DNA of 64,000 nucleotides from Escherichia phage EJP2: the sequence record OQ411014.1. The stretch is one strand, 5' to 3'. This document shows positions 8,118-53,964 of the stretch, in pieces. The stretch's first letter is position 1. Every line of letters starts with the position of its first letter. A program made the translations under genes and the position numbers. The notes under the pieces are model-generated. The model saw only the letters and a list, made by a program, of their open reading frames with translations, had not been told where the DNA came from and made no database searches.

Positions 8118-8126
8118 GATAACATT

Positions 8127-8485: not shown

Positions 8486-8576
<91 letters not shown>

Positions 8577-8689: not shown

Positions 8690-8764
8690 CGGGGTATAGC
8701 TTAATGGATAAAGCAGTAACCTTCTAAGTTATTGATCTAAGTTCGATTCTTAGTATCCCGACCA
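8690..8764 (+). tRNA. tRNA-Arg (anticodon UCU)
   Basis: Acceptor CGGGGTA/TATCCCG, anticodon stem GTAAC/GTTAT loop CTTCTAA, T-loop GTTCGATTC, encoded CCA. Confidence 0.75.
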
Positions 8765-8779
8765 AATAAGAGACACAAC

Positions 8780-9720: not shown

Positions 9721-10159
9721 TAGATATAACATAAAGATGATCCAACGTGGATTTGATGTGTTTAAAAATATCATTGCAGCTTATAGGTTCTTGATGGAAG
9801 TTGATAATCTTTCTGAACTTGACTTATGTAATGATTTCTGTATAATTGATGATGCTGGTAATCGCAATACTGCATCAGCCACTATAGACGATGATAGAAT
9901 AATTTTCTCATTTGACGCTGCTGGTGTTATAGTTGATAACAATGAACTGATTTACACGGAATGTCTATATGATGATTCTGGACATAAAATCAAGTTCATC
10001 GTGAAGAATCCGAAATTCATTGTAAATGAAGAAACATTCTTCCAAGCGAGTATGTTGTATGATTTGTCTGATGTGAAAAGTTACGAATGGTTTGTAACTA
10101 TTATGCAAACATATGATTTCGTTATGGATTTCATGAAAATGGATTTTGAACAATACTAG
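9713..10159 (+). CDS. FFQ-motif family protein (tandem paralog)
   Basis: ORF track; C-terminal VNEETFFQASMLYDLSDV nearly identical to next gene. Confidence 0.55.
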   Translation: MCNRYNIKMIQRGFDVFKNIIAAYRFLMEVDNLSELDLCNDFCIIDDAGNRNTASATIDDDRIIFSFDAAGVIVDNNELIYTECLYDDSGHKIKFIVKNPKFIVNEETFFQASMLYDLSDVKSYEWFVTIMQTYDFVMDFMKMDFEQY

Positions 10160-10167
10160 GACTTAAA

Positions 10168-10572
10168 ATGATTGATCTTCAGAAACTGCTAATGGTTCAG
10201 TATGGTTTTGATGTGTTGTCGAGTAGTGATTTATCGAACGTGAATTTGAAAGATTTTGAATTCATTATCAGAGATGCAAACAATAACAGTACTGATGCTT
10301 ATGCGTCAATTCATAACGAAAGCGTTGATTTCACATTCAATGATTGTTCTGTGTATGTTGATGCTACAGAAATCGAAATCGTTTACCGTGTATATAGTGA
10401 AAACTACGCGGACGATATCGAATATATCCTTTGTATTGAAAATCCAACTTATATAGTGAATGAAGAAACTTTCTTCCAGGCTAGTACACTTCAAGATTTA
10501 TCAGAAGTTCCTGGGTATGAGTGGATTGTTTCTATTATGCAAATGTACAAAAATATTATTACTAAGGTATAA
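10168..10572 (+). CDS. FFQ-motif family protein (tandem paralog)
   Basis: ORF track; C-terminal VNEETFFQASTLQDLSEV; TAGGA RBS. Confidence 0.55.
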   Translation: MIDLQKLLMVQYGFDVLSSSDLSNVNLKDFEFIIRDANNNSTDAYASIHNESVDFTFNDCSVYVDATEIEIVYRVYSENYADDIEYILCIENPTYIVNEETFFQASTLQDLSEVPGYEWIVSIMQMYKNIITKV

Positions 10573-10573
10573 T

Positions 10574-11092
10574 ATGAAAGAGCTTATTGAACGTGTAGAT
10601 TTCTTTGAACTGATTGCATTGGAATTTGATCCAGAATGTACTGATATTCTTTCAGATGTACCAATCTTCCCTATTGAAAACGATGATGGTACTTCATCGT
10701 ACTTAGAAGATTACGAAGATTATTTGCGTAGCTTCTGTCCAACATCAAACGATAAAGTGCATCTCTTTACTGAAATTATTCATGTACAATACAATACAAA
10801 TAATAAAGAAATTGTATTATGTGCAATGGATACATTCAACAGTACTGAAGCTGGTATTGCACGTGAGTATGCTAAACTATATCTCATTGATACAGGTGAG
10901 TATTGTAAACTTACCATCAAGGAAAATTCATTTATATTCAATAACAAAGAATATAAGCTAGGTACTACTGAAGAAGAGAACTTCCAGATTTCATGTACTG
11001 ACATGGGTTACTTCAATAATGTAGTAAATGAAGTAAAGAAATTTATTCTTCAAGATATTGACAAGAATGGATTACCTGAGTATAATAAATAA
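10574..11092 (+). CDS. FFQ-motif family protein
   Basis: ORF track 10460..11092 trimmed to ATG after TAAGGT RBS (track start overlaps upstream gene by >100 nt); motif TTEEENFQISC. Confidence 0.5.
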   Translation: MKELIERVDFFELIALEFDPECTDILSDVPIFPIENDDGTSSYLEDYEDYLRSFCPTSNDKVHLFTEIIHVQYNTNNKEIVLCAMDTFNSTEAGIAREYAKLYLIDTGEYCKLTIKENSFIFNNKEYKLGTTEEENFQISCTDMGYFNNVVNEVKKFILQDIDKNGLPEYNK

Positions 11093-11101
11093 CAGAATTA
11101 C

Positions 11102-11191
11102 AGAAGGTTGGCAGAGCGGCTAAATGCACTCGCCTACTAAGCGAGCACTCGCTCCGGCGAGTCGAGGGTTCGAATCCCCCACCTTCTGCCA
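11102..11191 (+). tRNA. type II tRNA with unusual anticodon loop (apparent anticodon ACU; identity uncertain)
   Basis: Acceptor AGAAGGT/ACCTTCT, T-loop GGTTCGAATCC, long variable arm, encoded CCA; anticodon stem CTCGC/GCGAG with loop CTACTAA. Confidence 0.6.
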
Positions 11192-11204
11192 TATTAGGAT
11201 TTCA

Positions 11205-11594
11205 ATGATGACAATGCATGTGTACGATGAGTATGAAGAACGTATAAAACATGAAATCCAAAGTTATTTGGATGGTGTCAATAAAAAATTGAAATACAGT
11301 TCGGGTAAACGTTTTCAATCATTCACCCTAGAATACATGGATTGTGATGATTATAAACAACGCAGAATAACTATAAAAATTGCAGTTGATCCGAAGTTTA
11401 GTTGTGTGCATTCATCTTTACAGATAGATTCCACTTTTGGTGAAGATGAAGATCAATACTGGAGTGGTTTTTCCTATATACCAGAAAGTGAAGAAAAGCA
11501 CTTTCAAGAAACGTTACTCAATAAACAGATTTTAAGCTGGGATTTATTGCAGTACTTGATTGTTTTCTTCACTAAAATGCAAAATAAAGATTGA
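11205..11594 (+). CDS. FFQ-motif family protein
   Basis: ORF track 11124..11594 trimmed because track start lies inside the tRNA; ATG after AGGAT RBS; motif SEEKHFQETL. Confidence 0.5.
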   Translation: MMTMHVYDEYEERIKHEIQSYLDGVNKKLKYSSGKRFQSFTLEYMDCDDYKQRRITIKIAVDPKFSCVHSSLQIDSTFGEDEDQYWSGFSYIPESEEKHFQETLLNKQILSWDLLQYLIVFFTKMQNKD

Positions 11595-11641
11595 CTGTAC
11601 TGTAATGAACTAGTATTATATTACTTAGAGGATATAAAAAC

Positions 11642-12001
11642 ATGGCAGTTCAGGATTTTTCAAAATATGAAAAGTTTCTTAGAACATTTTTGAATTCCAA
11701 ATTAACATCTTACGATGCAGCACATAGTGAAGATAAACCAGCACGTCGCATTGTAAATGAAAATCAAGATTCATTTATTATTACTAATGATGAAATTATT
11801 TTTGAATCATTTGAAGATATAAAAAGACCTGCAAAACCAACTTTACAAGATATCGTAAATAGCTTAAATGCTAGATACATTACCTTTCAGTTGTGTAATG
11901 ATGAAGAAGATGAATTTCAGAAAAGTACAGTATATGAGAATATCTTTCCACATGAATTAAATTCTGTTATACTTGATATACTGAATAGTACTGAACAGTA
12001 G
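11642..12001 (+). CDS. FFQ-motif family protein
   Basis: ORF track; RBS AGAGGA; promoter TTGACT N17 TATTAT upstream; motif EEDEFQKST. Confidence 0.55.
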   Translation: MAVQDFSKYEKFLRTFLNSKLTSYDAAHSEDKPARRIVNENQDSFIITNDEIIFESFEDIKRPAKPTLQDIVNSLNARYITFQLCNDEEDEFQKSTVYENIFPHELNSVILDILNSTEQ

Positions 12002-12028
12002 ATATCAGTACTGATAAAAGGGTAACAC

Positions 12029-12238
12029 ATGAAAGCACGAGAACTTGCTAAAATTCTGATGGATAATCCCGAAGCTGAAGTTGTTTTGAATGATAATGAA
12101 TCAAATTATCAATTTTCACATATTGCCTGTACTGAAACTTTTTATAAAGATTCGTATGCTGAATCTTGGCAAAACGATGATAACAAAACTATTTCAGAAA
12201 ATGAAAAATTCAAAGTTGATGTAATAGTTTTGTACTGA
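12029..12238 (+). CDS. small protein, MKxxELxxIL N-terminal family
   Basis: ORF track; N-terminus MKARELAKILMDNPEAEVV shared with 13494, 14536 and 16293 genes. Confidence 0.5.
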   Translation: MKARELAKILMDNPEAEVVLNDNESNYQFSHIACTETFYKDSYAESWQNDDNKTISENEKFKVDVIVLY

Positions 12239-12445
12239 TATAATGAATTCCACAATCAGACGTATATGGTGTAAGTTACGTCGATGTAATCCAGAACAAG
12301 ATCTCTGGTACTCTAGGAAGTGGTGAATGTTAACCTAGACGGGTTTGATAATTGGACGATAGGCAATTATTACTTGACTAGCAGGTTTAAACTAGAGGTG
12401 ACAGTCCTTCACCAAACTGGAAAACCGGATGGACTTTTTAATTTA

Positions 12446-12540
<95 letters not shown>

Positions 12541-12607
12541 TATTGTTCCGAAAAGAATCGAGTTCTAAGATTTGTGATAACTTGTCTTAGTATAAGATTT
12601 TGTGTAA

Positions 12608-12686
<79 letters not shown>

Positions 12687-12695
12687 TCCAAATTC

Positions 12696-12769
12696 GGCCC
12701 TTTAGCTCAGTTGGTTAGAGCAGAGAACTCATAATTCTTTGGTCACTGGTTCGAGTCCAGTAGGGGCCA
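12696..12769 (+). tRNA. tRNA-Met (anticodon CAU; could equally be a lysidine-modified tRNA-Ile)
   Basis: Acceptor GGCCCTT/AGGGGCC, D-arm AGCTCAGTTGGTTAGAGC, anticodon loop CTCATAA, T-loop GGTTCGAGTCC; CCA not encoded. Confidence 0.8.
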
Positions 12770-42149: not shown

Positions 42150-42785
42150 ATGACTAAACAAGATATTTTCAAAACTGTAATCAATGCTCTTCGGTCTGAA
42201 GAAGTTCGTTGTATGATGGAATACAACATCAATAAAGCCACTGACGCTATCGTTCCTGTTATTGAAGCTGCTGGCCTGGTGTTCGTTGGTATTGGTATGT
42301 ATTCTGTCGTTGTGGAGCATCCTAAGTACCCTGGACGTGTGTTTAAGGTTAGTACTTCACGTTGGGATGGTTTCCGTGAGTACGCTAAGTACTGCAAAGA
42401 TAACAGCAACAAACCATTTGTACCTGCTATCTATAGTGCTGAAGTTAAAGGTAACTTCGCATGGTATGAGATGGACAAATACTTCTCAATCATGAAGGCT
42501 GATGAATCTGATTTCGTAAGCAACAAAGCAGATGAAATGTATTCCTTTGCTAATGCTGGTCAGTACGGTTCATCTCTTCGTGAAGAGATGGATGTACAAC
42601 AGGATCGTATGGATATCTACAACTTCGCTAAGGAGTTAGAAAGTGCATACGGTTCGCGTTTCACGCTGGACATTCACACTGGCAATATCATGATGGATGT
42701 ATTCGGTAACTTCTTTATCACTGACCCACTTGCTGGTGATTTACGCCGCGAGATTCCAGTACTGGAAGAAGATCCAGTATTCTAA
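42150..42785 (+). CDS. protein kinase-like fold protein (211 aa)
   Basis: ORF track; glycine-rich GIGMYSVV, lysine in VFKV, catalytic-loop-like DIHTGNIMMD, DFG-like ITDP. Confidence 0.5.
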   Translation: MTKQDIFKTVINALRSEEVRCMMEYNINKATDAIVPVIEAAGLVFVGIGMYSVVVEHPKYPGRVFKVSTSRWDGFREYAKYCKDNSNKPFVPAIYSAEVKGNFAWYEMDKYFSIMKADESDFVSNKADEMYSFANAGQYGSSLREEMDVQQDRMDIYNFAKELESAYGSRFTLDIHTGNIMMDVFGNFFITDPLAGDLRREIPVLEEDPVF

Positions 42786-42794
42786 GGAGATATA

Positions 42795-43088
42795 ATGAAA
42801 GGTGCATTATTAGTAATTTTTGGAATGATTTTGATTTATTTTAGTGTTGACAAGTACACACAAAAGTCTGTACAATCAGTACCAGAAGCCCAAGAGACTT
42901 CACCAGTTCAGGAGCCACCAGCACCGGAACCTAAGTCCCAAGAGCAAGTACAAAACGAATACTACGCACATCACGTGTATCGTTTTAAAGATGACAAGTA
43001 CAAAGTTATTTGCTGGCGTATCATGAATATGAACCATGCAGGTTTATCTTGTCTCCCTGAACATTTGGTAAACGAAAGGACCGAATAA
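42795..43088 (+). CDS. membrane-anchored Pro/Gln-rich protein (97 aa)
   Basis: ORF track; AAGGAG RBS. Confidence 0.5.
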   Translation: MKGALLVIFGMILIYFSVDKYTQKSVQSVPEAQETSPVQEPPAPEPKSQEQVQNEYYAHHVYRFKDDKYKVICWRIMNMNHAGLSCLPEHLVNERTE

Positions 43089-43420
43089 TGAATATCATTT
43101 ATCCTAACACAAGCACCAATTTTGATGACGTTGTAAGTGTTCTGAACAATAACAGTACTGTAACAATTCAGTTTCAGTTATCACCAAGTACTGGTCTTCT
43201 TGTGAAGAAAGAAGTATCCAAATACGTTGGCTATGAAAACCAAACTGTAATTGAAGTTTCGTTCTATGAAGATGATGCATCTGTGTTCGGTCGCATGTCA
43301 TCTGGTACTGAAATTCATGCAGCAGATGAAGCACTATTAGTAGTGCGTGCACTAAAGGAACGCTTGGCTTCAACGTCACCAAGCGATGTCAGTTCTATCT
43401 CTCTAGCTCGCGTGTGGTAA
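43088..43420 (+). CDS. hypothetical protein (110 aa)
   Basis: ORF track. Confidence 0.5.
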   Translation: MNIIYPNTSTNFDDVVSVLNNNSTVTIQFQLSPSTGLLVKKEVSKYVGYENQTVIEVSFYEDDASVFGRMSSGTEIHAADEALLVVRALKERLASTSPSDVSSISLARVW

Positions 43421-43425
43421 ACGAA

Positions 43426-43728
43426 ATGAAACAGGTTATTATTGCAACGTTTGTATTTTTACTATTCACTCCAGTAACTTATGCTGGTATCAATCTGGAT
43501 TGTGTACTCACTAATTCATCTGGTGCAAAGATGCAGATCAATACCAGACAGACCTTTGGTGAATCTTATATTGAGTCAGATGCTTATATCAACTTCAAAG
43601 CAGTGGACTTTGTTGAAGGCTCGTTCATCAACTCCAACATGGTACTGGATAAGATTACTCTCAAGGGAGTGTTCAGTACTCAAAAGGATAACGGTAAAAC
43701 CCATCACGCAATGGTAGATTGTAACTAA
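43426..43728 (+). CDS. secreted protein (signal peptide)
   Basis: ORF track 43414..43728 (GTG) trimmed to ATG; N-terminus MKQVIIATFVFLLFTPVTYAG. Confidence 0.5.
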   Translation: MKQVIIATFVFLLFTPVTYAGINLDCVLTNSSGAKMQINTRQTFGESYIESDAYINFKAVDFVEGSFINSNMVLDKITLKGVFSTQKDNGKTHHAMVDCN

Positions 43729-43743
43729 GAGGAAAGCTAAGTT

Positions 43744-43827
43744 ATGACGTACTTATCTATTGCAGTTGTTGTATTTTTAGTTTTAGTCGTTTGTGCATTT
43801 GGGTATCTCATGACTAAAGGTGATTGA
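43744..43827 (+). CDS. membrane micro-protein (27 aa)
   Basis: GAGGAAAG RBS then ATG; single hydrophobic helix; speculative. Confidence 0.3.
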   Translation: MTYLSIAVVVFLVLVVCAFGYLMTKGD

Positions 43828-44018
43828 ATGTGAAATACATATTAGTCCTACTAGTATTATTCACTACATGCACAAATGCTAGTGCATTGAAGGAGCAGAA
43901 ATTCTTTGTATCCTTCTTTGCACCAGTACAAACGAAGCACATTAAATGGACGTATAATTCAAATCTACTAGAGTTGAATGAGCACAGGATTGGATTCGTT
44001 ATCAATTACGTGTGGTGA
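43824..44018 (+). CDS. secreted small protein (64 aa)
   Basis: ORF track (TTG start overlapping upstream stop); signal-peptide-like N-terminus. Confidence 0.4.
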   Translation: MNVKYILVLLVLFTTCTNASALKEQKFFVSFFAPVQTKHIKWTYNSNLLELNEHRIGFVINYVW

Positions 44019-44040
44019 ATAACAATTCAGTACTGAAGAA

Positions 44041-44073
44041 TGGGTTGACTTAGGTCAGCCCTTTTGTTATAAA
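44041..44073 (+). promoter_or_regulatory. terminator-promoter module (GGGTTGACTTAGGTCAGCCC hairpin, T-run, TATAAA)
   Basis: -35 TTGACT inside hairpin stem, 17 nt spacer, -10 TATAAA. Confidence 0.55.
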
Positions 44074-44120
44074 TAACGGTATAGAAAAACACTATATGAA
44101 ATCTATGGAGAGAAATCAAA

Positions 44121-45641
44121 ATGCCAAATGATATGAAACACAAGAATGGTGCATTAGTACAACACTCTGACAAATGGAGTGAAGCTAATCGTCGTAAGAA
44201 TTCACACAACGCAGGCCAAGGATCTCGTGGCTCTCGCAATCAGGGGACTGGTGAAGCTGGTAAAGCTAATACAGTTGCTTCTGGTGGTATGGACACTTCC
44301 AATATGTCTCAACATGAGAAACTAAAGTACTTCAACAGTTTAGGACTCCTAAACCCTACACAGAAGAAGCAATTACAAGACATGGACGCTGCTGCATCTG
44401 CACCAAAAGAACAGCCACAGCAAGCTCCTAAAGCTGCTCCTGCTGGTAATCCTGTCAAAGAGCTATCTGATAACTTAGGTCGTATCTTTGCACAGAAGCC
44501 TAATCTAATTCAAGGTATTGTAAAAGAACTACAAGCAGTACCGAAGGAAGAGCTAAAGAGTAAAGCACAAGCTGTACTTGATGCTATGAAAGGCAATCGC
44601 AGTACTGAACCAACCGAAGTATTCAGTACTATCATGCGTGCACTTCAAGCTAAACCACAAGCTGCTCCAGCACAGAAAGCACCTAAGATGGACAGTGCAC
44701 AGGACATGTCAGATTTGTTTGGTAAAGTTGGTGCTGAAGGTAAGAACAACGCACAACAAGTCAAGAACGTCCAAGCTAAGATTATTGATCGTTTAGGTGA
44801 TAATCAAGACAAGACTAAGCGGGCATTTGACGCATTGAACAAAGCACTTGAATCTTATGTTCCTGGTGAGAAAGACAAGTTCCAGACCATCATGAACGCA
44901 GTCTTTGGTGAAATGAAGAAGTACGAAGCAGAGCACGGTGAGAAGGTATCATCTGATGGCTATATGATTCGTAAAGACGAAGAAGGTGCAGTAGACCAGA
45001 AAGATGCTCCTAAAGAGCAAGAAGACCTACCTGATACAGTTGATATGGATGGTTACATTTCTCGTCCAGATGAATATGACTTCGGTTCAGACAAAGAAGG
45101 TTATGAGTATGCTATGGACATTTATCGTTTCCTAGCTAAGAACTATGATTATGCTAACAAGTACGTAGATCAGTTTGTCAGTGCTTGGGATAATTACAAA
45201 GATAAAGGTTATGACTTCCCTGCGGAAGCTGCATTCTTTGAGTTAGGTAAACTACTCCAGAAAGATGGTGTAGAGATTGGCTCGAAAGAAGATACTTCTA
45301 GTCTAGATGCAGAATTGGCAAAAGACCGTCAAATGACACCAGGTTCTAAAGCTGAATTGAATAAGCTCCTATCATGGATTGTTGACATTGGTAAAAATGC
45401 TGGTAAAGATAACAAGAGTATCAACCGCAGTATTTCTTGGATCAATAATAAAATTGATAACAACGGGCGTAAGCTACAGAAAGCATGGAGTGATTTAGTC
45501 AATGGTGCAGATGAGATCGATATTGATTCTCCTGAAGCATATGAGTATGCGATGACGACTCTAGACAATTCCTTCCAGGACTATGAAAATGGTAATCTAA
45601 CTGCTAGTGAACAAGACATCATGCGTTCACACGGAAAATAA
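44121..45641 (+). CDS. large A/K/Q/P-rich protein (506 aa)
   Basis: ORF track; GGAGAG RBS; low-complexity N-terminal half; host-like codon usage. Confidence 0.65.
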   Translation: MPNDMKHKNGALVQHSDKWSEANRRKNSHNAGQGSRGSRNQGTGEAGKANTVASGGMDTSNMSQHEKLKYFNSLGLLNPTQKKQLQDMDAAASAPKEQPQQAPKAAPAGNPVKELSDNLGRIFAQKPNLIQGIVKELQAVPKEELKSKAQAVLDAMKGNRSTEPTEVFSTIMRALQAKPQAAPAQKAPKMDSAQDMSDLFGKVGAEGKNNAQQVKNVQAKIIDRLGDNQDKTKRAFDALNKALESYVPGEKDKFQTIMNAVFGEMKKYEAEHGEKVSSDGYMIRKDEEGAVDQKDAPKEQEDLPDTVDMDGYISRPDEYDFGSDKEGYEYAMDIYRFLAKNYDYANKYVDQFVSAWDNYKDKGYDFPAEAAFFELGKLLQKDGVEIGSKEDTSSLDAELAKDRQMTPGSKAELNKLLSWIVDIGKNAGKDNKSINRSISWINNKIDNNGRKLQKAWSDLVNGADEIDIDSPEAYEYAMTTLDNSFQDYENGNLTASEQDIMRSHGK

Positions 45642-45654
45642 GTAAAAATAAGGG

Positions 45655-45683
45655 TTGACATATGTCATCCCTTTTTGTATCCT
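45655..45683 (+). promoter_or_regulatory. terminator-promoter module variant (GGGTTGACATATGTCATCCC)
   Basis: Hairpin with TTGACA in stem followed by TTTTT and weak -10. Confidence 0.45.
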
Positions 45684-45720
45684 ATCAGTACTGAATTAAT
45701 CCCAACTAAGGTGACAAAAC

Positions 45721-46041
45721 ATGGAACTCAAACAATACGACGCAGCAATCGAATTTATGGGTTATACTGAAGAGTACCCAAATGACTTCATCTATAAGCA
45801 CGATGTAGGGCGTGATCATTCAATTTATTTCATTCAGCATAAACAAACTGGTGTACGCATTGGTGTGAATGATACATATTCTGTAGCGAAGAACTTTTCT
45901 TCCTTCAATCATGTAAATTCAACTGTAGCAAAGAATGTTGTTGACACAGTACGCAAATTCATAGAGAATGAACGTCATCAGGAATCAGTTTCCTCCGACA
46001 ACGCAAGCCTTATGAAAGTGTTTGCTCACTATAAACTCTAA
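45721..46041 (+). CDS. hypothetical protein (106 aa)
   Basis: ORF track; AAGGTGA RBS. Confidence 0.55.
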   Translation: MELKQYDAAIEFMGYTEEYPNDFIYKHDVGRDHSIYFIQHKQTGVRIGVNDTYSVAKNFSSFNHVNSTVAKNVVDTVRKFIENERHQESVSSDNASLMKVFAHYKL

Positions 46042-46355
46042 TGCTGAGACTAATCATGACTAATCCACAATCTGATTTTGATATTGAAGTGTATGTAGGT
46101 TCTAATGTGTACCCTGAAATCTTGTCAGATGTACAGGAACTGAAAGGTACAAGTTCAGTACTGCACTTTGAAGAACTTTGCGTGAAGTACGGTTCTATGG
46201 GTGATAAAGAGTTTATTGCATTCTACATGGAAGCGAGAAACTTGAAGTTTTTAGATGGTTCATATTTCAAAGTACAAGAAACAGTCGCAGCAGACTATTC
46301 AAAGAAATATGAAAGTTCAATCATTGACTTGTATAAAAAGTACGGAATCTTATAA
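46041..46355 (+). CDS. hypothetical protein (104 aa)
   Basis: ORF track. Confidence 0.55.
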   Translation: MLRLIMTNPQSDFDIEVYVGSNVYPEILSDVQELKGTSSVLHFEELCVKYGSMGDKEFIAFYMEARNLKFLDGSYFKVQETVAADYSKKYESSIIDLYKKYGIL

Positions 46356-46364
46356 GGAACTCCA

Positions 46365-46742
46365 ATGCGTGTATCATATAAAGTAACTGAATTCAACAAA
46401 GATTTGTTAGTACGTTCTATGTTTGAAGATGCGAAATCATTCAAGTACTTCAAAATTGGATTAGATGCGTGTATTGAGATTCAGAAGTTGATAGATGCTG
46501 GATATATCATCATGGATAATGGTGAACCTATTCCACGGCATTATGAGTTCAAGATTGCATTTGACTCATTCGATTCAGTGCTTAGTATGCCGCGACTGGG
46601 ACCAGATGGGGTTATGTGGTTAGGTTCAACTATGGGTAACATTGAAGATACTGTGTTTGTGTATAAGAAAGAACTCAACGAAGCATTTGGTAAACTTTCT
46701 TACATCAAGCCAGAAGACCAATGTAAACTGAAATTTATTTGA
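46365..46742 (+). CDS. hypothetical protein (125 aa)
   Basis: ORF track; TAAGGAA RBS. Confidence 0.55.
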   Translation: MRVSYKVTEFNKDLLVRSMFEDAKSFKYFKIGLDACIEIQKLIDAGYIIMDNGEPIPRHYEFKIAFDSFDSVLSMPRLGPDGVMWLGSTMGNIEDTVFVYKKELNEAFGKLSYIKPEDQCKLKFI

Positions 46743-46749
46743 GGTATGT

Positions 46750-47082
46750 ATGTTAGTATATAATTACTTCAGTTTTATAATCTTCATGATGTTTTCGCTT
46801 TATATCATCATGGGTAACGTTGCGTGTTTCTTGAAGCATTATAAACTCGCAAACAGATGGTTTATGATGACAAATCCTTGCTTCCCGAATTTCTGTGCAT
46901 TTATATCTGGGATTTTAGTACTGGTAGATTTGTTCTTGGGTATCTCATCGGAACAACCATGCTTCTCTGCGGTAGCGATGACATTTTTGCTCGTTGCAAC
47001 AGTCCTGGGTATTGTGTTTATCATCTGTACAGTACTGATAGAGTTGATTAGTGATTGGCGACGAAAGTGGCCTGAACAATAA
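46750..47082 (+). CDS. multi-pass membrane protein (110 aa)
   Basis: ORF track. Confidence 0.5.
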   Translation: MLVYNYFSFIIFMMFSLYIIMGNVACFLKHYKLANRWFMMTNPCFPNFCAFISGILVLVDLFLGISSEQPCFSAVAMTFLLVATVLGIVFIICTVLIELISDWRRKWPEQ

Positions 47083-47095
47083 CATCATAAAAGGG

Positions 47096-47124
47096 TTGAC
47101 TTCGGTCAGCCCTTTCTGTATTAT
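47096..47124 (+). promoter_or_regulatory. terminator-promoter module (GGGTTGACTTCGGTCAGCCC, TATTAT)
   Basis: -35 TTGACT in hairpin stem, 17 nt spacer, -10 TATTAT. Confidence 0.55.
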
Positions 47125-47151
47125 ACATACATCAACTGAGAGGATAATTAA

Positions 47152-47580
47152 ATGCGTGTATTTCGTTTTGAATTAAAATATTCTATTCTTGAAGGTAAGT
47201 ACAACTCTATCATTACTGGTATGGGACCATTCACATGGTACTACAAAGATTACAGTACTGAAGCTGGCTACCGTGCACTTGAAATGAAAACGCTTGAAGA
47301 GTGTCAACCAGAGCCAGAGGATGATGGTATTCATGCTATTAAGAACGGATGGGCTTTTGGGTGTGACTCACTGGAATCGCTGTATGAGTTCTTTAATGCT
47401 GATATCCAGGCTTTGAGTGCTGCTGGGTTTGCAGTGTCTGAATATGAAGTTCCTTATCAGCACGTAGACATTGGTCTACATCAAGTACAGTACTACAAAA
47501 AGAGTGCACAATTGCTAGCTATCCATGATGTGAATGAAATATTCAAATCAGTACTTGACAATTGTACTGTTCAGTACTAA
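47152..47580 (+). CDS. hypothetical protein (142 aa)
   Basis: ORF track; GAGAGGA RBS. Confidence 0.55.
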   Translation: MRVFRFELKYSILEGKYNSIITGMGPFTWYYKDYSTEAGYRALEMKTLEECQPEPEDDGIHAIKNGWAFGCDSLESLYEFFNADIQALSAAGFAVSEYEVPYQHVDIGLHQVQYYKKSAQLLAIHDVNEIFKSVLDNCTVQY

Positions 47581-47612
47581 ACTATATCTAACTTAACAGA
47601 GGAATCAAACAA

Positions 47613-48224
47613 ATGACTAAATGTGCTTACGGTCTGGACTATTCCATCAATGGTAAATTCACATCTCTCGGCACTTCTAACGATTGGCGTGCCATTTTTG
47701 AGACATTCATTAATGATGTTATTAGCACATCAGTTGAAAGTGTTGAATATGCAATCCTCACGTTCAACGATGAACCGATTGTAAATTCAGTACTGGACGT
47801 TATTCTTTTTGGGATGGTAGAACACAAATATCGTGTAGTTCTTTTGAATAAAGAACGTGACACTATTATTTCATGTGCTTCTTACAACGAAACATATAAC
47901 ATGCGTGAATGTAATTTATGCTCTGGTATTATTGAAGTAAAAGCAGTAAATCAAAACAACTTATGTTTTTCATTGGGTAAGGACTTTTCATTTAGTAGTG
48001 CTGATTTTGAAGTGTTCATGAATGATTGGAATACTATGCATCTCAAGACTAAAACTAAAATTTCTAGCTTACAACGCCCTACTGAAGTTGCAAAAAACGA
48101 GAATACTATTCAGTACCATGTCAGTACTGAATTAGAGAAAGCAATCAAAGTAATTGATTCTAATCCAGAAGAAGCAAAGCGTATTCTTAACGTAATGCAA
48201 TATATGTTCACTAACAAAGGATAA
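47613..48224 (+). CDS. hypothetical protein (203 aa)
   Basis: ORF track; AGAGGAA RBS. Confidence 0.6.
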   Translation: MTKCAYGLDYSINGKFTSLGTSNDWRAIFETFINDVISTSVESVEYAILTFNDEPIVNSVLDVILFGMVEHKYRVVLLNKERDTIISCASYNETYNMRECNLCSGIIEVKAVNQNNLCFSLGKDFSFSSADFEVFMNDWNTMHLKTKTKISSLQRPTEVAKNENTIQYHVSTELEKAIKVIDSNPEEAKRILNVMQYMFTNKG

Positions 48225-48229
48225 TTGAA

Positions 48230-48826
48230 ATGCTATTCAATAAAAGTAATTATTTTTCAGTACCGAAGGTTTCTGGCAAACCGCTCCAAATGACTTTTGA
48301 TATGAATATCAGTACTATATTCTATAATTTGCTTCGCATTCAAAATAATGATAAAGAGTTCGTCTTGGGTAAAGCAGCAATTTACAATTCAGATGATATT
48401 CCTTTGATTTGTGATTTTGATAAAATTCTTGAAGCAGCACGTTCAGCCACCAGTAGAGTATATAAATTCACTGTTTGTGATTTGTCACAGAAGGTACTTG
48501 ATTATAGTTTCTATATGGATGAAGAAAGTTTGAAGGTAAGTATCACAAATATCATCAATGCAGACATTACCCTTGATAAGAAACCGCACCTTTCGATCAC
48601 AGATAATGAGACTGGGGAAACTCGAAGTGGTACTGTGAATGAAATTTATGATCATTACTTCCATGCACAGATTGCACCTAAAAATGATTCTACTATGTCT
48701 GTAGTACTGGACATGGAAGAAGTACTGAATGAAATGCGTCCTATTATTCAGAATGGTACTGACGTAGAAAAGTCCAACGCAAAAGCAATCCTGGCGTATG
48801 TTGCAGCTAAATTGGCTAAACAATAA
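48230..48826 (+). CDS. hypothetical protein (198 aa), paralog of 53302 gene
   Basis: ORF track; C-terminus LNEMRPIIQNGTDVEKSNAKAILAYVAAKLAKQ matches VNDMREQIKSGTDKEKIEAKAVLSYIATKIALKQ. Confidence 0.6.
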   Translation: MLFNKSNYFSVPKVSGKPLQMTFDMNISTIFYNLLRIQNNDKEFVLGKAAIYNSDDIPLICDFDKILEAARSATSRVYKFTVCDLSQKVLDYSFYMDEESLKVSITNIINADITLDKKPHLSITDNETGETRSGTVNEIYDHYFHAQIAPKNDSTMSVVLDMEEVLNEMRPIIQNGTDVEKSNAKAILAYVAAKLAKQ

Positions 48827-48832
48827 AAGAAA

Positions 48833-48856
48833 AAAGGAGACTTTGTAGTCTCCTTT
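48833..48856. terminator. bidirectional rho-independent terminator
   Basis: AAAGGAGAC-TTTGT-AGTCTCCTTT between convergent genes. Confidence 0.6.
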
Positions 48857-48860
48857 CTTT

Positions 48861-50039
48861 TTATGGTAAATCAAATTCCGTATATGAATATTTGTATACA
48901 CCATCTGGTCCACGACCTGAGTATCGTAATTTACCAGAAGTAGTTATATATGCTGAAGTAATATTACTAGTACTGAATATGTTAAACACTGACTTCATAT
49001 CATTCACTGTACCGTTACCGAATGGTATCAGGTTAAGTTCATTGCCGTTGACACCAGTACTCAATCTTCCTGAAGAATTTGCTCCACAACCATATGCATT
49101 TGATGGGCTAAGAGCAACGTAACCAGTATTACTAGTATAATAACTTAGTAAACCAATAAAATTCTCTGTAGTGGCTATTTCAGTAAAGACTCTAATATTG
49201 ACAGAACTATTCACTCCATTACCTAAGTTTCCAGCATTCTGGCTTCCCGCAGCATATAGATGTGTTTTACCAGTACCGTCACTGTACAATATTGTGAATG
49301 CTGATTCAGTTAGACCAATATCAAAAACACTAAGACCTGGGTCTGGTAGTGGTACTTGTGTTAGCACATTTATTCTTGTATCTGGATGACCAATACCGAG
49401 TTGACCAAATGAGTTTGAACCTGAAACCCAAACACTTAAATCATTTTTTAATATCAGTACTGATGAATTAACAAATTCAACTTTTTGAACATCTGATGTA
49501 AGTTTTGAGAAAGTAGTTAGTGCAAGATAATTACCAGTTGCTAGTTGGCCTTGGTTATTAAAACCGCTTCTATAAAGATCACCATTGTTCATTAATATAT
49601 ATAATGCATATACACCAGCATGAACAGATGTTATTTGATTAAGATTCCCTGTACCTATACCAGCTTCAATAAATGGGGTACAATCAGTATATGATGTCAC
49701 AACTTCAGTAGATGATGTATTGCCAGTTTGAAAGCTACGGCGACCAGTATATAATAATTTTCCATCCATAGTTTTAATGATAACAAAACTTGTGTTTGTA
49801 CACCAAACATCTTGAACATCATCTCTGATTAAAGTCCACTCTAGCTTTTGTTCTGTTGGCTTTCCATCCCCATAGATATAATTATCAACTGTTCCTCCAC
49901 CGATACCATACAATCTGTTATCATCATATAATACCATAAATGCCGGACGAGACGATGCATAAGGTACTAATATTTTTGTAATTTCAGGTAATGAAGGTGC
50001 TTTATTACCATAATTAAGCATTCGTACAAAAGGTAACAT
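48861..50039 (-). CDS. RCC1-like repeat (beta-propeller) protein (392 aa)
   Basis: ORF track; GGAGA RBS on minus strand; repeated G-x-N-x-x-G-Q/N-L-G motifs (GFNNQGQLATG, GSNSFGQLGIG, GSQNAGNLGNG). Confidence 0.65.
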   Translation of the reverse strand: MLPFVRMLNYGNKAPSLPEITKILVPYASSRPAFMVLYDDNRLYGIGGGTVDNYIYGDGKPTEQKLEWTLIRDDVQDVWCTNTSFVIIKTMDGKLLYTGRRSFQTGNTSSTEVVTSYTDCTPFIEAGIGTGNLNQITSVHAGVYALYILMNNGDLYRSGFNNQGQLATGNYLALTTFSKLTSDVQKVEFVNSSVLILKNDLSVWVSGSNSFGQLGIGHPDTRINVLTQVPLPDPGLSVFDIGLTESAFTILYSDGTGKTHLYAAGSQNAGNLGNGVNSSVNIRVFTEIATTENFIGLLSYYTSNTGYVALSPSNAYGCGANSSGRLSTGVNGNELNLIPFGNGTVNDMKSVFNIFSTSNITSAYITTSGKLRYSGRGPDGVYKYSYTEFDLP

Positions 50040-50148
50040 AATTAAATCTCCGTCTAATAATTATAATGTATTTACCAAAAAGGACTTGACAGTACTGAAC
50101 AGTACTAGTAGAATTGTATCCAAGATAACTCACTAAGGAATATCCAAA

Positions 50149-50439
50149 ATGACAACTGTTACTTATTATCAAACACGCCGCCTTTTTGACATGACTGAAG
50201 GGCGTGGCCCAATGATCAATGATTTGGCATTCACTGAGTACCGCCATGCTGAAGCATACATCAACTCCCAACCTGGTGTTATGGGTCGTCGCTGTAACTG
50301 GACACAAGAGCGTCATGCGTCTGACTGGGACATTCAAACAGTACACGCCAGGACTGAAGCCTATGATCCACAAGAAGAAGCACGTCAGCGTGCATTAGCT
50401 AAACTAACCAAAGAAGAACGTAAACTACTAGGACTCTAA
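50149..50439 (+). CDS. hypothetical protein (96 aa)
   Basis: ORF track; TAAGGAA RBS; promoter TTGACA at ~50082 with two CAGTACT copies in spacer. Confidence 0.55.
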   Translation: MTTVTYYQTRRLFDMTEGRGPMINDLAFTEYRHAEAYINSQPGVMGRRCNWTQERHASDWDIQTVHARTEAYDPQEEARQRALAKLTKEERKLLGL

Positions 50440-50440
50440 T

Positions 50441-50653
50441 ATGACAGTACAACTAAAAACTTATAAAGAAGATGATAAAACATATGTAGCTACTGGTTTT
50501 ATCAAAGACAATGGCTTCCATCGTGCACACGATCAACGTCAATACACAGCAGAACGTGCTGGCGGTGAAGTACTCAACACTGACAGCTATGATGATGCAT
50601 TAGCTTTCATTGCTGCCGGACTAGGTAAACCAGAGCGGTTATATACGTTATGA
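50441..50653 (+). CDS. hypothetical protein (70 aa)
   Basis: ORF track. Confidence 0.5.
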   Translation: MTVQLKTYKEDDKTYVATGFIKDNGFHRAHDQRQYTAERAGGEVLNTDSYDDALAFIAAGLGKPERLYTL

Positions 50654-50916
50654 AATACATTCTAGTACTTCTAAGTATCTTCTTTCTTACGGCATGTGAA
50701 CCGGAAGAAGAACGTGAAGAACGTATTGATGCGAAGTATCTGGTGGCGAATGATTGTAAGTACACTGGCGAATCCTTTATAAACGAAGAAACCATTATGG
50801 TGGGTCCAGCCCGTTTCTCTAGGCCAGAGGTCGTTGAGAAGCGTTATTACGTGTATAAATGCAGTCAAGAGCGGAAGGTTCTCGCTACAGTTCGATTTGA
50901 AATTGAAAAAGAATAG
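50650..50916 (+). CDS. lipoprotein (88 aa)
   Basis: ORF track; signal MKYILVLLSIFFLTAC with lipobox LTAC. Confidence 0.55.
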   Translation: MKYILVLLSIFFLTACEPEEEREERIDAKYLVANDCKYTGESFINEETIMVGPARFSRPEVVEKRYYVYKCSQERKVLATVRFEIEKE

Positions 50917-50944
50917 TTGACACACAATGGGAGTACTGTATAAT
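50917..50944 (+). promoter_or_regulatory. sigma70-type promoter TTGACA N16 TATAAT with hairpin across -10
   Basis: GGGAGTACTGTATAATACTCCC inverted repeat encloses -10. Confidence 0.5.
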
Positions 50945-50976
50945 ACTCCCATCTTAACGACAAAAGAGGAATTGAA

Positions 50977-51126
50977 ATGGAACGTGTATACTTGAACGTA
51001 ATCACTGGTGCTAAACGTAAGTTCATCGGCAAAGAAGGATATTTCTGGATGAACAATAAGCAGTGGGTTCCTAATGGTACATCAGAAGAACTCATCAAAG
51101 CATTACCATATTACAAAGTACTCTAA
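50977..51126 (+). CDS. small hypothetical protein (49 aa)
   Basis: Uninterrupted frame found by hand; AAGAGGA RBS. Confidence 0.4.
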   Translation: MERVYLNVITGAKRKFIGKEGYFWMNNKQWVPNGTSEELIKALPYYKVL

Positions 51127-51143
51127 CTATAGGAATCAATCCC

Positions 51144-51791
51144 ATGCTCAAAGATATATCAATTGATGTAGATGCACTGAATGAAGAGTACAAAGATAAA
51201 GGGATTGATTTTTTTGAAACCGTAAGGGAAAACCCAATTAATGGTTCAAAACTACAAGTTACAATGGGAGTTGTTAATCCATTACATCCAGCAATACAGG
51301 CAAAGAAACTACCTATTAGTACTAAACCAATACGCCTTATGCTCGCGGCACATTGTAGTACTGGTATCTATATGGGATTCCCATTACATGAAACTATTCG
51401 CAAGTACAGCAAAAGCGAAGTTGTTTCTCGTATGGTTGAGTTTGATTTGAGTACTGGAATGTGGTATGATTCTCATGAAGTGGCACAGTCCTTCAATGAG
51501 AAGGAATTACCTTCTGGAAAGGCTCCTGCCGATATTACTCGCTTGAGTAGTTCTTATGGTTTAGCTGATAACATCAAGCAAATCATCAAGCACTACAGAA
51601 AAGTAATTAACAGGAGTGACTTCAATGTAGTGCTGCATATTACGTACAACAATGAAAAGCAACTGGCTGGATTGCGTTGGCATAAATGCGGGAAGTACTT
51701 GGGTAAGCATAAACAGAAGCACGAATACTTAGAAGAAGATAATATAAAGAGTATTCTACAATTCCACCTTTATGTACTGAAGGAGGACTAA
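51144..51791 (+). CDS. hypothetical protein (215 aa)
   Basis: ORF track; TAGGAA RBS. Confidence 0.6.
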   Translation: MLKDISIDVDALNEEYKDKGIDFFETVRENPINGSKLQVTMGVVNPLHPAIQAKKLPISTKPIRLMLAAHCSTGIYMGFPLHETIRKYSKSEVVSRMVEFDLSTGMWYDSHEVAQSFNEKELPSGKAPADITRLSSSYGLADNIKQIIKHYRKVINRSDFNVVLHITYNNEKQLAGLRWHKCGKYLGKHKQKHEYLEEDNIKSILQFHLYVLKED

Positions 51792-51950
51792 ATGAATCAT
51801 GATAAGATTCAAGAAATTGAAGAGAAGCGTAATCACTTAAACGCACTCACGTATGAAATGACACAGACTGCTGATGTGGTGATGGGAGTATTATCAACAT
51901 CCGCAGTTCTTTCAGTACTGATAGCGATTTATATATTTTTCTTGTCATGA
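51792..51950 (+). CDS. small tail-anchored membrane protein (52 aa)
   Basis: Uninterrupted frame found by hand; strong AGGAGG RBS; C-terminal hydrophobic helix. Confidence 0.45.
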   Translation: MNHDKIQEIEEKRNHLNALTYEMTQTADVVMGVLSTSAVLSVLIAIYIFFLS

Positions 51951-52016
51951 AGTGTTTGACAATCTTAGTATCATCTAGTATGATGTTTGTACTATAATGA
52001 TATAAGGAAATACAAA

Positions 52017-52262
52017 ATGAAATTTATTAGTGCAATTATTCTTTCGATGACTTTATTGGTTGGATGTTCAACTGATTTCATGAAAGAAGCATACGTTGGT
52101 GAAGTGAATGGACGTACAATCGTCTTCTTCAAAGATATCCAACGTAACGGTATGCAGTACTACACTCCGCAGTTTGCATCTGTATGCCGTGATATGTTCG
52201 GGGTAAGTTCACCATGTAGGATAAAAGAAACTGCAATCAAAAACATTCGTCCATACAAATAA
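52017..52262 (+). CDS. lipoprotein (81 aa)
   Basis: ORF track 51987..52262 (TTG) trimmed to ATG after TAAGGAAA RBS; signal MKFISAIILSMTLLVGCS with lipobox LVGC. Confidence 0.55.
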   Translation: MKFISAIILSMTLLVGCSTDFMKEAYVGEVNGRTIVFFKDIQRNGMQYYTPQFASVCRDMFGVSSPCRIKETAIKNIRPYK

Positions 52263-52273
52263 GGAAACACAAT

Positions 52274-52597
52274 ATGTTTATTCTTTCTTTCCCACTGTTC
52301 GTTCTGCTTATCTGTTATATTGCAGTAGTAGCAGTAGGTTCTAAGTACAAAGATCTCCCTGAATATCTGAACATTGGTGACGGTCAAACAAATTCGCTAC
52401 GCTTTGTTCTGGGTGCAACGTTTGTATCATTAGGGTTCCAAATTCTTGGTCTGTTCTTTGCGTTTGCAATTAGTCTAGGACTGTTGTTTTCAACTATTGC
52501 TTCAGTCCTTGCGTGGTGGTGGTTGTTTGAAACATTCCAGTCTGGTAAGATCAAGATCTGGTACAAAGATGCTAAAGCATATTTCGATCAGGACTAA
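52274..52597 (+). CDS. multi-pass membrane protein (107 aa)
   Basis: ORF track; TAAGGAAA RBS. Confidence 0.5.
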   Translation: MFILSFPLFVLLICYIAVVAVGSKYKDLPEYLNIGDGQTNSLRFVLGATFVSLGFQILGLFFAFAISLGLLFSTIASVLAWWWLFETFQSGKIKIWYKDAKAYFDQD

Positions 52598-52615
52598 TTG
52601 ATTCATTGTTTCATC

Positions 52616-52645
52616 GGGGTTAACATGTGTTAGCCCTTTTTTGTA
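52616..52645 (+). terminator. rho-independent terminator (variant of hairpin family)
   Basis: GGGGTTAACA-TGTG-TTAGCCC hairpin followed by TTTTTT. Confidence 0.5.
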
Positions 52646-52652
52646 GGTAATA

Positions 52653-53036
52653 ATGCGAGCGATGATTAGTATAGATAAGAAAGGTGCAACTCGGATTGTA
52701 TTCTTGACGAAGAGATACGCAATCAAGATACCATCTTTCTATTCGTGGAAAATGTTCTTACATGGATTGATTGCTAATCTAAATGAAAGAGCATTCAAAG
52801 AGTACTCATGTTCTCCTGGTTCTGGATTATGCCCTACTGTATATGCGTCAGGAACGGGTCTAATAAGCATTCAGAAGAGATGTTTACCAGTACAGCACAG
52901 AGGTATGTTCTGGGTGGAATTGGCTCACCTAGCGTGCAGTACTGTACTACATGAGGACTTCTTTTATTCGGATGCGAAGCCTGAGAACTTCGGGTATATA
53001 GATGGGAAGTTAGTAAAATTGGATTACGGAGATTGA
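52653..53036 (+). CDS. protein kinase-like protein, N-lobe plus catalytic loop only (127 aa; possibly truncated or split)
   Basis: ORF track; YAIKIP (VAIK-like lysine), HEDFFYSDAKPENFGY (HRD-LKPEN-like catalytic loop), KLDYG (DFG-like); frame ends right after DYG. Confidence 0.5.
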   Translation: MRAMISIDKKGATRIVFLTKRYAIKIPSFYSWKMFLHGLIANLNERAFKEYSCSPGSGLCPTVYASGTGLISIQKRCLPVQHRGMFWVELAHLACSTVLHEDFFYSDAKPENFGYIDGKLVKLDYGD

Positions 53037-53037
53037 T

Positions 53038-53226
53038 ATGCTAATTTACAATAACAATGGTATTAGAGTACTTCAGCATGAATACTTACAAGTGTTTCAT
53101 GTACAGAAGTTCATGGAGGGTGATAATCCTCGGAGCTATGGTCGTACGATGGATTACTTCACTGTAAAGGAATGCTATAGTATTCAAGAAGTTCGTGAAG
53201 TTGTATCTGAATTACTTGAAGAATAA
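53038..53226 (+). CDS. hypothetical protein (62 aa), possibly C-terminal part of split kinase-like gene
   Basis: ORF track; begins 2 nt after previous stop in another frame. Confidence 0.4.
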   Translation: MLIYNNNGIRVLQHEYLQVFHVQKFMEGDNPRSYGRTMDYFTVKECYSIQEVREVVSELLEE

Positions 53227-53239
53227 TATTAGAAAGGGG

Positions 53240-53269
53240 TTGACTTCGGTCGGCCCTTTTTGTTATAAT
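53240..53269 (+). promoter_or_regulatory. terminator-promoter module (GGGGTTGACTTCGGTCGGCCC, TATAAT)
   Basis: -35 TTGACT in hairpin, T-run, -10 TATAAT. Confidence 0.55.
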
Positions 53270-53301: not shown

Positions 53302-53964
53302 ATGCCAATTCCATTGTTTCATGAAAGTAATACATTCACTATCTACAAAAATAATGGCGAACTGAAGACTATTCACTTCACTGGTCACAAAGTAGGTTTG
53401 TATTACAAGTTGTATTCAATCCTACGTAAGAGTCACAACTTCAATATGCCTTCAGTAACTGTACGTGATATTACAGGGCGGGTATTATCCAATGGAAACT
53501 TCTTGGATATCTATTTTGAGTTGATTGATGTATTGAAAGCAGAACACAAGTACTCAATCATGACGACCAATAGTGTTGGTGAAGATCTATATCACTTCCG
53601 TGATGAACCTGAAGGTGTACTGCAACAACTGAAGCATCTGAGAGATACATATACTAAAAATGGTGATCCGCGTCGTTTTGAATATCACACAGTAGTACGA
53701 AGAGATGACTCATCGTTTATTCGTAACAAGTTGGATTATTTGATTATAGAATACCAGAAAATTGCTGATGCAGAGAACTCAGAGAAAGCTGGCGAAACCG
53801 ACTGCATTGGTGAAACTGGCGAAATGGGGTTAGGTGTGTACCTGGAGTTCGATGAAGTAGTGAACGATATGCGTGAGCAAATCAAATCAGGTACTGACAA
53901 AGAGAAGATTGAAGCTAAAGCAGTACTGTCATATATCGCTACTAAAATAGCACTGAAACAGTAA
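53302..53964 (+). CDS. hypothetical protein (220 aa), paralog of 48230 gene
   Basis: ORF track; TAGGAAA RBS; shared C-terminal block. Confidence 0.6.
   Translation: MPIPLFHESNTFTIYKNNGELKTIHFTGHKVGLYYKLYSILRKSHNFNMPSVTVRDITGRVLSNGNFLDIYFELIDVLKAEHKYSIMTTNSVGEDLYHFRDEPEGVLQQLKHLRDTYTKNGDPRRFEYHTVVRRDDSSFIRNKLDYLIIEYQKIADAENSEKAGETDCIGETGEMGLGVYLEFDEVVNDMREQIKSGTDKEKIEAKAVLSYIATKIALKQ

Follow-up and report, generated by a model that had tools for sequence, protein, structure and literature searches.

The window considered here, 64,000 nucleotides of one strand of Escherichia phage EJP2 (sequence record OQ411014.1), encodes two proteins that, in the explanation we favour at a probability of roughly 0.8, are evolutionarily unrelated, intact and of small kinase fold. 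Protein 1 (42150..42785; feature coordinates refer to the + strand unless stated otherwise) has 211 amino acids (aa) and would be a T7 gp0.7 (T7K)-family kinase in the form of the kinase domain only, without the shut-off (SO) domain. Protein 2 (52653..53036) has 127 aa and would be a sub-minimal phosphotransferase of family phrog_4301, comprising kinase subdomains I-VII only and with a native C-terminus one residue past its D-Y-G motif. A sequence-only reading of this DNA had described both as kinase-like, and suspected the second of being truncated, split or a pseudogene. Both open reading frames (ORFs) and all of the motifs that it quoted are found in the ORF list and the raw sequence, and the kinase likeness has stood; the suspicion of a damaged gene has not. 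Protein 2 emerges instead as one member of an uncharacterised, very widespread, sub-minimal kinase-like family, encoded alongside a T7K-type kinase in the same genome.

The first question about protein 2 is whether its polypeptide is complete. Its recognizable motifs are YAIKIP (K25), SDAKPENFG (D107, K109, N112) and LDYGD, after which the frame stops: positions 53022-53036 read gat-tac-gga-gat-TGA, the TGA lying at 53034-53036, and one spacer base later a 62-aa ORF opens in another frame at ATG 53038, just as had been noticed. Homologues of protein 2 were found by tblastn in 125 phage records. Those of 121Q, Shewanella phage SXP01, Aeromonas phage PS1, Dhakavirus IME341 and Erwinia phage Y3 all stop 0-2 residues past D-[YL]-G, and when the frames are read from stop to stop, the downstream gene is different in each of the five. 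Within the core group, the phages just named, which represent five other genera, share an end 0-3 residues past D-[YL]-G with most of the 150 metagenomic representatives that matched best. Core-group proteins on viral contigs stop at DYG+1 to +3, and a more distant subgroup adds 17-30 unrelated residues after DYA or DYG. The ratio of non-synonymous to synonymous substitution (dN/dS) between protein 2 and 121Q gp215 is about 0.13. Protein 2 is intact—its polypeptide natively stops at the DFG position—and, like protein 1, it is under purifying selection.

The family to which protein 2 belongs is very large, is found almost only in phages, and has members of about 110-135 aa. A search of 1.84 billion representatives with a hidden Markov model (HMM) returned 1,336 proteins at E<=1e-3, 772 of them at E<=1e-10, which puts the family at no fewer than 1,336 clusters at 50% identity (at least that many); the members that were fetched have a median length of 123 aa, and the profile match nearly always reaches their last residue. 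In PHROGs, protein 2 matches phrog_4301 ('unknown function') with E 4.4e-35 over profile positions 38-167 of 225, and the unmatched tail of that profile derives from a tailed subgroup that is itself phrog_4301. Pfam has no model for the family. In a 267-aa homologue from Kosakonia phage Kc263, the kinase-like part (hhalign probability 99.4%) stops at IDYGT, and no domain is recognized in the extension beyond it. Fusion partners were looked for in the long members (P0128, P0157, P0194 and the Kc263 protein), whose extensions proved unrelated and free of domain matches. The phages that carry the family range from jumbo and T4-like phages to Aeromonas phages of about 115-140 kb and Pseudomonas phages with genomes of about 58 kb, among others; when 185,579 species genomes were scanned with a pattern-limited search, the single match lay on a 4.4-kb contig of a metagenome-assembled genome. 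A few GenBank records (pEa_SNUABM_5, PAKlein3, Kc263, AH04) label homologues 'serine/threonine kinase', and our literature searches found no paper on the family.

The residues that this family conserves are those of a kinase active site. Invariant in 28 close homologues are G11, T13, R14, V16, K25, F35, G38, N42, E45, G69, D107, N112, G114, K122, D124 and G126. For a broader view we used 139 divergent members, selected for a length of 105-140 aa, a range into which 152 of the 170 collected sequences fall; the counts that follow refer to this set. The Gly-loop equivalent, G11-A-T13-R14-I-V16 in the beta1-beta2 turn (52683..52700), retains G11 in 138/139 members, T13 in 122/139, R14 in 139/139 and V16 in 131/139, with R14 apparently sitting at the third-Gly position of GxGxxG. 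The beta3 lysine K25 of YAIKIP (52725..52727), within a predicted strand at 22-27, and the alphaC glutamate E45 of ANLNE (52785..52787), within a predicted helix at 32-47, are each present in 139/139. In the catalytic loop D107-A-K109-P-E-N112 (52971..52988), position 107 is D in 95 and E in 43 members, making it acidic in 138/139; K109 is kept in 122/139, and position 112 is N in 99 and S in 39. The DFG equivalent, D124-Y-G126 (53022..53030), which is followed by D127 and the TGA, has D124 in 139/139, Y125 in 128/139 and G126 in 125/139. The K25/E45/D124 triad of ATP and Mg binding is invariant, and the D-x-K-x-x-N catalytic loop is present in the window protein and relaxed in part of the family. 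The intervals between these residues (82 from K25 to D107, 5 from D107 to N112, 12 from N112 to D124) equal the Hanks-type spacing.

Structure prediction agrees with the residues. The confident model of protein 2 has a bilobal kinase fold, and two methods of structure comparison give it almost exclusively kinases as neighbours, with Hanks-type kinases as the best matches; ArkI and aminoglycoside phosphotransferase (APH) structures are also among them. Sequence searches are far less telling. With the single sequence, phmmer against the PDB recovered TTK/Mps1 alone, below threshold (E 0.16) and in the correct register (SDAKPENF...VKLDYG against SDLKPANF...KLIDFG), and the family HMM gave no kinase match among PDB sequences. 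Pfam, NCBIfam and PADLOC scans of protein 2 returned nothing meaningful, with the protein below the Pfam Pkinase threshold, and for the 139 family members Pfam returned nothing above noise, 2 of them matching ABC1 with scores below threshold; no curated kinase sequence model, whether Pfam Pkinase, ABC1, RIO, APH or NCBIfam, matches it. Subdomains VIII-XI, that is, the activation segment with its APE motif, alphaF and alphaG-I, are not present in a chain that stops at DYG+1. By its modelled fold and its catalytic motifs, protein 2 is best placed in the protein-kinase-like superfamily, although it lacks both subdomains VIII-XI and a match to a curated model. A paralogous origin of proteins 1 and 2 was rejected (hhalign probability 0.4%, BLASTP not significant), and on sequence grounds the two are independent, unrelated kinase-like lineages.

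What protein 2 does is a matter of proposal. It is most likely a self-contained ATP-binding phosphotransferase with a constitutively open active site, and would probably be a protein kinase that by itself discriminates little between substrates. The predicted chain would run through beta1-beta5, alphaC, alphaE, a catalytic loop of the form [D/E]-x-K-x-x-[N/S], beta7-beta8 and D-Y-G, and the active site would be non-RD, without an activation loop, and with Tyr in the Phe position of DFG. Low selectivity is expected because the activation segment, the P+1 loop and alphaF-alphaI are absent; these are elements of selectivity and regulation, so the active site is expected to be open and constitutively configured. 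If the modelled fold is granted, a low-specificity protein kinase is the most likely activity, at about even odds. That a kinase ending at the DFG position must be inactive, as the sequence-only reading had it, is not a safe inference: the isolated T7K kinase domain, residues 1-242, was purified as active and extends about 27 residues past its DFG-like motif (PMC13645617), and OspG and NleH, though devoid of subdomains VIII-XI, are active kinases. These precedents make activity of protein 2 plausible despite its missing C-lobe.

Several observations weigh against catalysis, and they bring in the alternative that survives best. In this alternative, which we consider unlikely, protein 2 is a non-catalytic, pseudokinase-like module, a nucleotide binder that sequesters or allosterically modulates a host or phage protein. 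We know of no characterised kinase-like enzyme that lacks every helix after DFG, and a partner or oligomerisation may be needed. Nothing past DFG could bind a substrate or anchor the spines, and about 30% of the 139 members have Glu for the catalytic Asp and Ser for the Asn, whereas the K/E/D triad is absolutely invariant. A comparison with NleH points in the same direction: it is reported to bind RPS3 independently of its kinase activity. Conservation of the catalytic loop itself argues the other way, since an acidic residue at position 107 in nearly every member and a lysine at 109 in the great majority would be unexpected if binding alone mattered. Pseudokinases typically lose at least one of the K/D/D residues, which also counts against this alternative.

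A second alternative keeps the catalysis and changes the substrate: protein 2 could act on RNA, at its ends or 2'-OH groups like the small archaeal kinase ArkI, on nucleotides, or on a small molecule like the APH-type enzymes. The structural matches to ArkI and APH favour it, as does the adjacency of RNA ligase 2 in one T4-like lineage. Nevertheless, we regard it as distinctly improbable; the D-x-K-P-E-N loop with Lys at +2 is a Ser/Thr protein-kinase signature, and APH, choline-kinase and RIO-type enzymes have no catalytic-loop Lys at that position. The RNA-ligase adjacency is confined to that lineage, and 27 diverse family loci have no conserved neighbour: when all of their ORFs were clustered, no family except the mini-kinase was common to three or more loci (>=3). 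A protein kinase of low selectivity, not a kinase of RNA or small molecules, remains our preferred activity.

The stop one residue past DYG, with a second ORF beginning 2 nt later in another frame, had suggested either a pseudogene that is frameshifted or truncated, or a split gene with its C-lobe encoded by the 62-aa ORF; we now hold this to be very improbable indeed. The 62-aa ORF (53038..53226) encodes a small phage protein, phrog_6957 (E 7.5e-28, positions 1-61 of 63), for which Pfam, NCBIfam and PADLOC scans returned nothing meaningful. Phage records with a homologue number 241, Krischvirus, T7-like and rV5-like phages among them. It is a complete phrog_6957 member, and in T7-like, rV5-like and other phages no protein 2 homologue lies beside it; in PBECO4 the two homologues are about 10 kb apart, at 187164 for the 62-aa ORF and at 177117 for protein 2. 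At the 26 other loci examined, the genes downstream of protein 2 homologues are not homologous to it; across the 27 loci, the gene immediately downstream of the family member differs in length and sequence almost everywhere, and no conserved neighbour able to supply a C-lobe in trans was seen. The split gene was rejected because the 62-aa ORF is a full family member located elsewhere in other phages; on sequence evidence it is independent and not part of a kinase, and it is probably co-transcribed with protein 2. Frameshift and pseudogene are further opposed by the low dN/dS, by the invariant active-site residues, and by the equal stop position in the five named phages, with their different downstream genes, in the metagenomic representatives and in viral contigs. 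The conserved terminus and the independence of the 62-aa ORF lead us to reject both readings, and resequencing around 53036, which had been recommended, is unnecessary.

That the kinase motifs are a chance resemblance and neither protein has a kinase fold is a negligible prospect, already refuted by the profile-search criterion that the sequence-only reading had set: neither has a Pfam or NCBIfam match or a significant PDB sequence match, yet protein 1 matches phrog_15752 at E 4e-50 and aligns with T7K, the high-confidence models have essentially only kinases as neighbours (protein 2 having been compared by two methods, protein 1 by one), and the resemblance is beyond chance in both proteins because the motif residues are the invariant alignment columns of both families and the structure matches are of kinase type.

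Two loci of the protein 2 family have features of their own. In Aeromonas phage PS1 (locus L003) there are tandem paralogues, PS1_0028 and PS1_0029, at 1148-1507 and 1507-1872 of the locus; they have 119 and 121 aa and overlapping stop and start codons, and the duplication might hint at a hetero-dimeric function. In Dhakavirus IME341 (locus L004, 1489-1851), the mini-kinase homologue lies between hoc and RNA ligase 2, stopping 1 nt before the start codon of the latter, and only a 54-aa fragment of it is annotated. This arrangement may point to a lineage-restricted link with RNA repair; as a functional lead for the family it was dropped, being confined to one lineage.

Protein 1 is more readily placed. 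It is a T7K homologue by sequence and an ordinary member of a jumbophage clade that is already known. Its motifs are VGIGMYSVV (G47/G49), RVFKV (K66), LDIHTGNIMMD (D174, N179) and ITDP (190-193). The profile and structure comparison that the sequence-only reading had proposed assigns residues 1-211 to phrog_15752 ('protein kinase; inhibitor of host transcription...', E 4.4e-50) in PHROGs, and matches the models of both proteins to kinase folds. Full-length orthologues of 211-213 aa, with 53-56% identity by tblastn, occur in 121Q (gp205), PBECO4, G17, Munch and others; many carry the label 'protein kinase', and the weaker matches (23-30% identity) are Ser/Thr kinases of T7-like phages. BLASTP aligns residues 41-209 with T7 gp0.7 residues 68-230 (E 1e-10, 22% identity), in a register that places G49 at G76, K66 at K93, D174/N179 at D195/N200 and D192-P-L at D213-P-V. 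All of the homologues carry PF27024, a recent Pfam family; our Pfam, NCBIfam and PADLOC scans of protein 1 gave no meaningful match, and a search of PDB sequences gave none. The AlphaFold2 (AF2) model has a predicted local distance difference test score (pLDDT) of 91.4 and a predicted template modelling score (pTM) of 0.87. Foldseek returned 179 PDB matches for it at E<=1e-3, and kinases account for 50/50 of those listed, which include CK1, PknI, MEK1 and APH(2''), the last representing aminoglycoside phosphotransferases. Against 121Q, dN/dS is about 0.10, with synonymous sites saturated.

Conservation among 22 homologues of protein 1 follows the T7K alignment. In the Gly-rich loop G47-I48-G49 (42288..42296), G47 and G49 are invariant, and G49 stands opposite T7K G76; the beta3 lysine K66 of RVFKV (42345..42347) is invariant and stands opposite K93 in RVIKV. 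The catalytic loop D174-IHTG-N179 (42669..42686), opposite T7K D195-MHSG-N200, has D174, H176 and N179 invariant. In the DFG-like motif I-T-D192-P-L (42717..42731), opposite the T7K DPV at 213-215, I190, T191 and D192 are invariant, and P193 and L194 are conserved at 90% or more (>=90%). No SO DNA-binding domain was found in protein 1, whose chain stops 19 residues past ITDP, and the alignment with T7K ends at residue 230/359; the missing part is characteristic of the Autographiviridae architecture rather than of the kinase domain itself. By homology with T7K, protein 1 is most likely a Ser/Thr(/Tyr) kinase acting on host proteins during infection, and it would act without the DNA-directed targeting that the SO domain gives.

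The segment DPLAGD of protein 1 (residues 192-197, 42723-42740) deserves separate mention. T7K is autophosphorylated at Ser216, which is inhibitory, and at Ser218 (PMC13645617); opposite these sites protein 1 has Ala195 and Asp197, and most jumbophage homologues in the 22-sequence alignment have A, G or S opposite Ser216. With Ala195 and Asp197 in those places, the Ser216 off-switch is probably absent from protein 1, and the published self-inactivation switch of T7K may not operate in the jumbophage clade.

The transcriptional setting of protein 2 is marked by a repeated element. The sequence GGGTTGACTTNGGTCNGCCCTTTT has 10 copies against 0 expected by chance, each of 24 nt and all on the + strand, at 39671, 44042, 45652, 47093, 53237, 53972, 54803, 56199, 56642 and 56936. 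It consists of a GC-rich hairpin with a -35-like TTGACT in the stem, a T-run and then TATAAT, and looks like a cassette of terminator and early promoter that marks off small transcription units. A degenerate copy, a terminator-like hairpin and T-run with a 9-pair stem followed by TTTTTTGTAGG (52616..52637), lies a short way upstream of protein 2. The unit of protein 2 and the 62-aa ORF is closed by an exact copy from the 10-member repeat family, GGGTTGACTTCGGTCGGCCCTTTT then TATAAT (53237..53269), within which 53240-53269 reads as TTGACT-18-TATAAT with 11/12 matches and an extended-10 TG. The two genes would form a unit bracketed by hairpin/sigma70-like promoter cassettes, and protein 2 is probably expressed early. 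The copy at 53972 has megablast matches in 15 Asteriusvirus-like phages, so the element is conserved across that group.

The window as a whole is AT-rich (GC about 0.37), and nearly all of its coding lies on one strand. By tblastn its closest protein-level relatives are the Asteriusvirus jumbo phages of about 350 kb (121Q, PBECO4, G17), at 55-67% identity, and on the evidence of these protein sequences its source is a jumbo phage related to Asteriusvirus (121Q/PBECO4). No near-identical phage genome came up when the region was compared by megablast, and the only matches at the DNA level are to the 24-40 nt hairpin/promoter element. Six tRNA genes lie on the + strand within 682-12769 (Thr-TGT, Ser-TGA, Arg-TCT, Ser-ACT, Ser-GCT and Met-CAT); one tRNA-Ser has the unusual anticodon ACT, perhaps through a miscall or because it decodes in a non-standard way.

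Several genes between and around the two kinase-like proteins also drew attention. A 506-aa ORF at 44121-45641 (+), directly 3' of a perfect hairpin/promoter cassette, has low-complexity Lys/Ala/Gln/Glu repeats (…KEQPQQAPKAAPAGNP…, …KPQAAPAQKAPK…), and a 142-aa ORF at 47152-47580 (+) has a match to Pfam PF26820 (Phage_T4_Y00F) in the precomputed annotation of an identical metagenomic contig. The sole sizeable minus-strand gene in the otherwise plus-strand block, 48861-50039 (-), encodes 392 aa, and the local GC skew goes negative there; precomputed matches to PF25390 (WD40_RLD) and a faint one to RCC1 suggest an RCC1-like beta-propeller protein. ORFs of 198 and 220 aa at 48230-48826 and 53302-53964 (+) have a C-terminal module of about 49 aa in common (BLASTP E 4e-12; …NEMRPIIQNGTDVEKSNAKAILAYVAAKLA / …NDMREQIKSGTDKEKIEAKAVLSYIATKIA); they are paralogues in an accessory region, and a weaker version of the module may sit in the ORF at 47613-48224.

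The interest of these findings lies mainly with protein 2, in whose family about 120 residues, ending at DFG, hold what looks like a full set of ATP-binding and catalytic elements. If active, such proteins would redefine the minimal kinase domain, with alphaF and the whole substrate lobe dispensable, and the phage repertoire of host take-over and counter-defence would gain a second kinase class of wide distribution; they would also offer a tiny scaffold for engineering. If inactive, they would be a widespread nucleotide-binding pseudokinase module of phages, with a target worth finding. Tentatively, and at somewhat less than even odds, the family may comprise the smallest known self-sufficient protein kinases (about 120 residues), early, constitutive and of low specificity, serving host take-over or anti-defence; the idea that such low-specificity mini-kinases are spread over thousands of phage lineages, and here act in parallel to an unrelated T7K-type kinase in one genome, is put forward just as cautiously. 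Protein 1 adds little to this; it is well suited to testing whether T7K homologues without an SO domain likewise act as hyperpromiscuous anti-defence kinases.

Of the known systems, T7K is the closest to protein 1, which has its whole kinase domain: the Gly-loop, the Lys of RV[FI]KV, D-[IM]-H-[TS]-G-N-I-M and I-T-D-P. In T7K the DPV occupies residues 213-215, and the catalytic-dead allele is G76F (PMC13645617). Protein 1 differs in being only 22% identical and in having DPL instead of DPV, so that Asp and Pro are retained and Val is replaced by Leu; this valine is less conserved in jumbophage homologues (PMC13645617). The homologues of jumbophages such as Munch and G17 have lost the SO domain (Nature 2026, PMC13645617), and protein 1 resembles that clade both in this loss and in its very short tail past the DFG-like motif.

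For protein 2, the nearest functional parallels are the minimal kinases OspG and NleH; it would work like them without being a member of their family. Sequence homology to OspG or NleH was not found, as neither appeared in the phmmer or family-HMM searches of the PDB at E<=10 or E<=1, though their structures are deposited there. Their kinase domains have about 160-170 residues with post-DFG helices, whereas protein 2, at 127 aa, is about 40 residues shorter and ends at DYG+1. OspG is reported to require E2~Ub for activation, and both proteins are type III secretion effectors (Shigella; enteropathogenic and enterohaemorrhagic E. coli, EPEC/EHEC) that act in eukaryotic cells, while protein 2 comes from a phage and acts in bacteria. 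With Hanks-type kinases such as TTK/Mps1 and PknB, protein 2 shares the beta3 Lys, the alphaC Glu, D-x-K-P-E-N (compare HRDLKPEN), D-[FY]-G and the canonical spacing. It differs from them in having no HR before the catalytic Asp and Arg for the third Gly of GxGxxG, and in lacking the activation segment, the APE motif and alphaF-alphaI. In RIO, Bud32 and ArkI, which have 170-270 aa, C-terminal helices follow the metal-binding Asp, and the catalytic loop is of another type, with no Lys at +2. Found in archaeal or eukaryotic cells, these proteins act on ribosome, tRNA or KEOPS substrates, in contrast to the phage-encoded protein 2.

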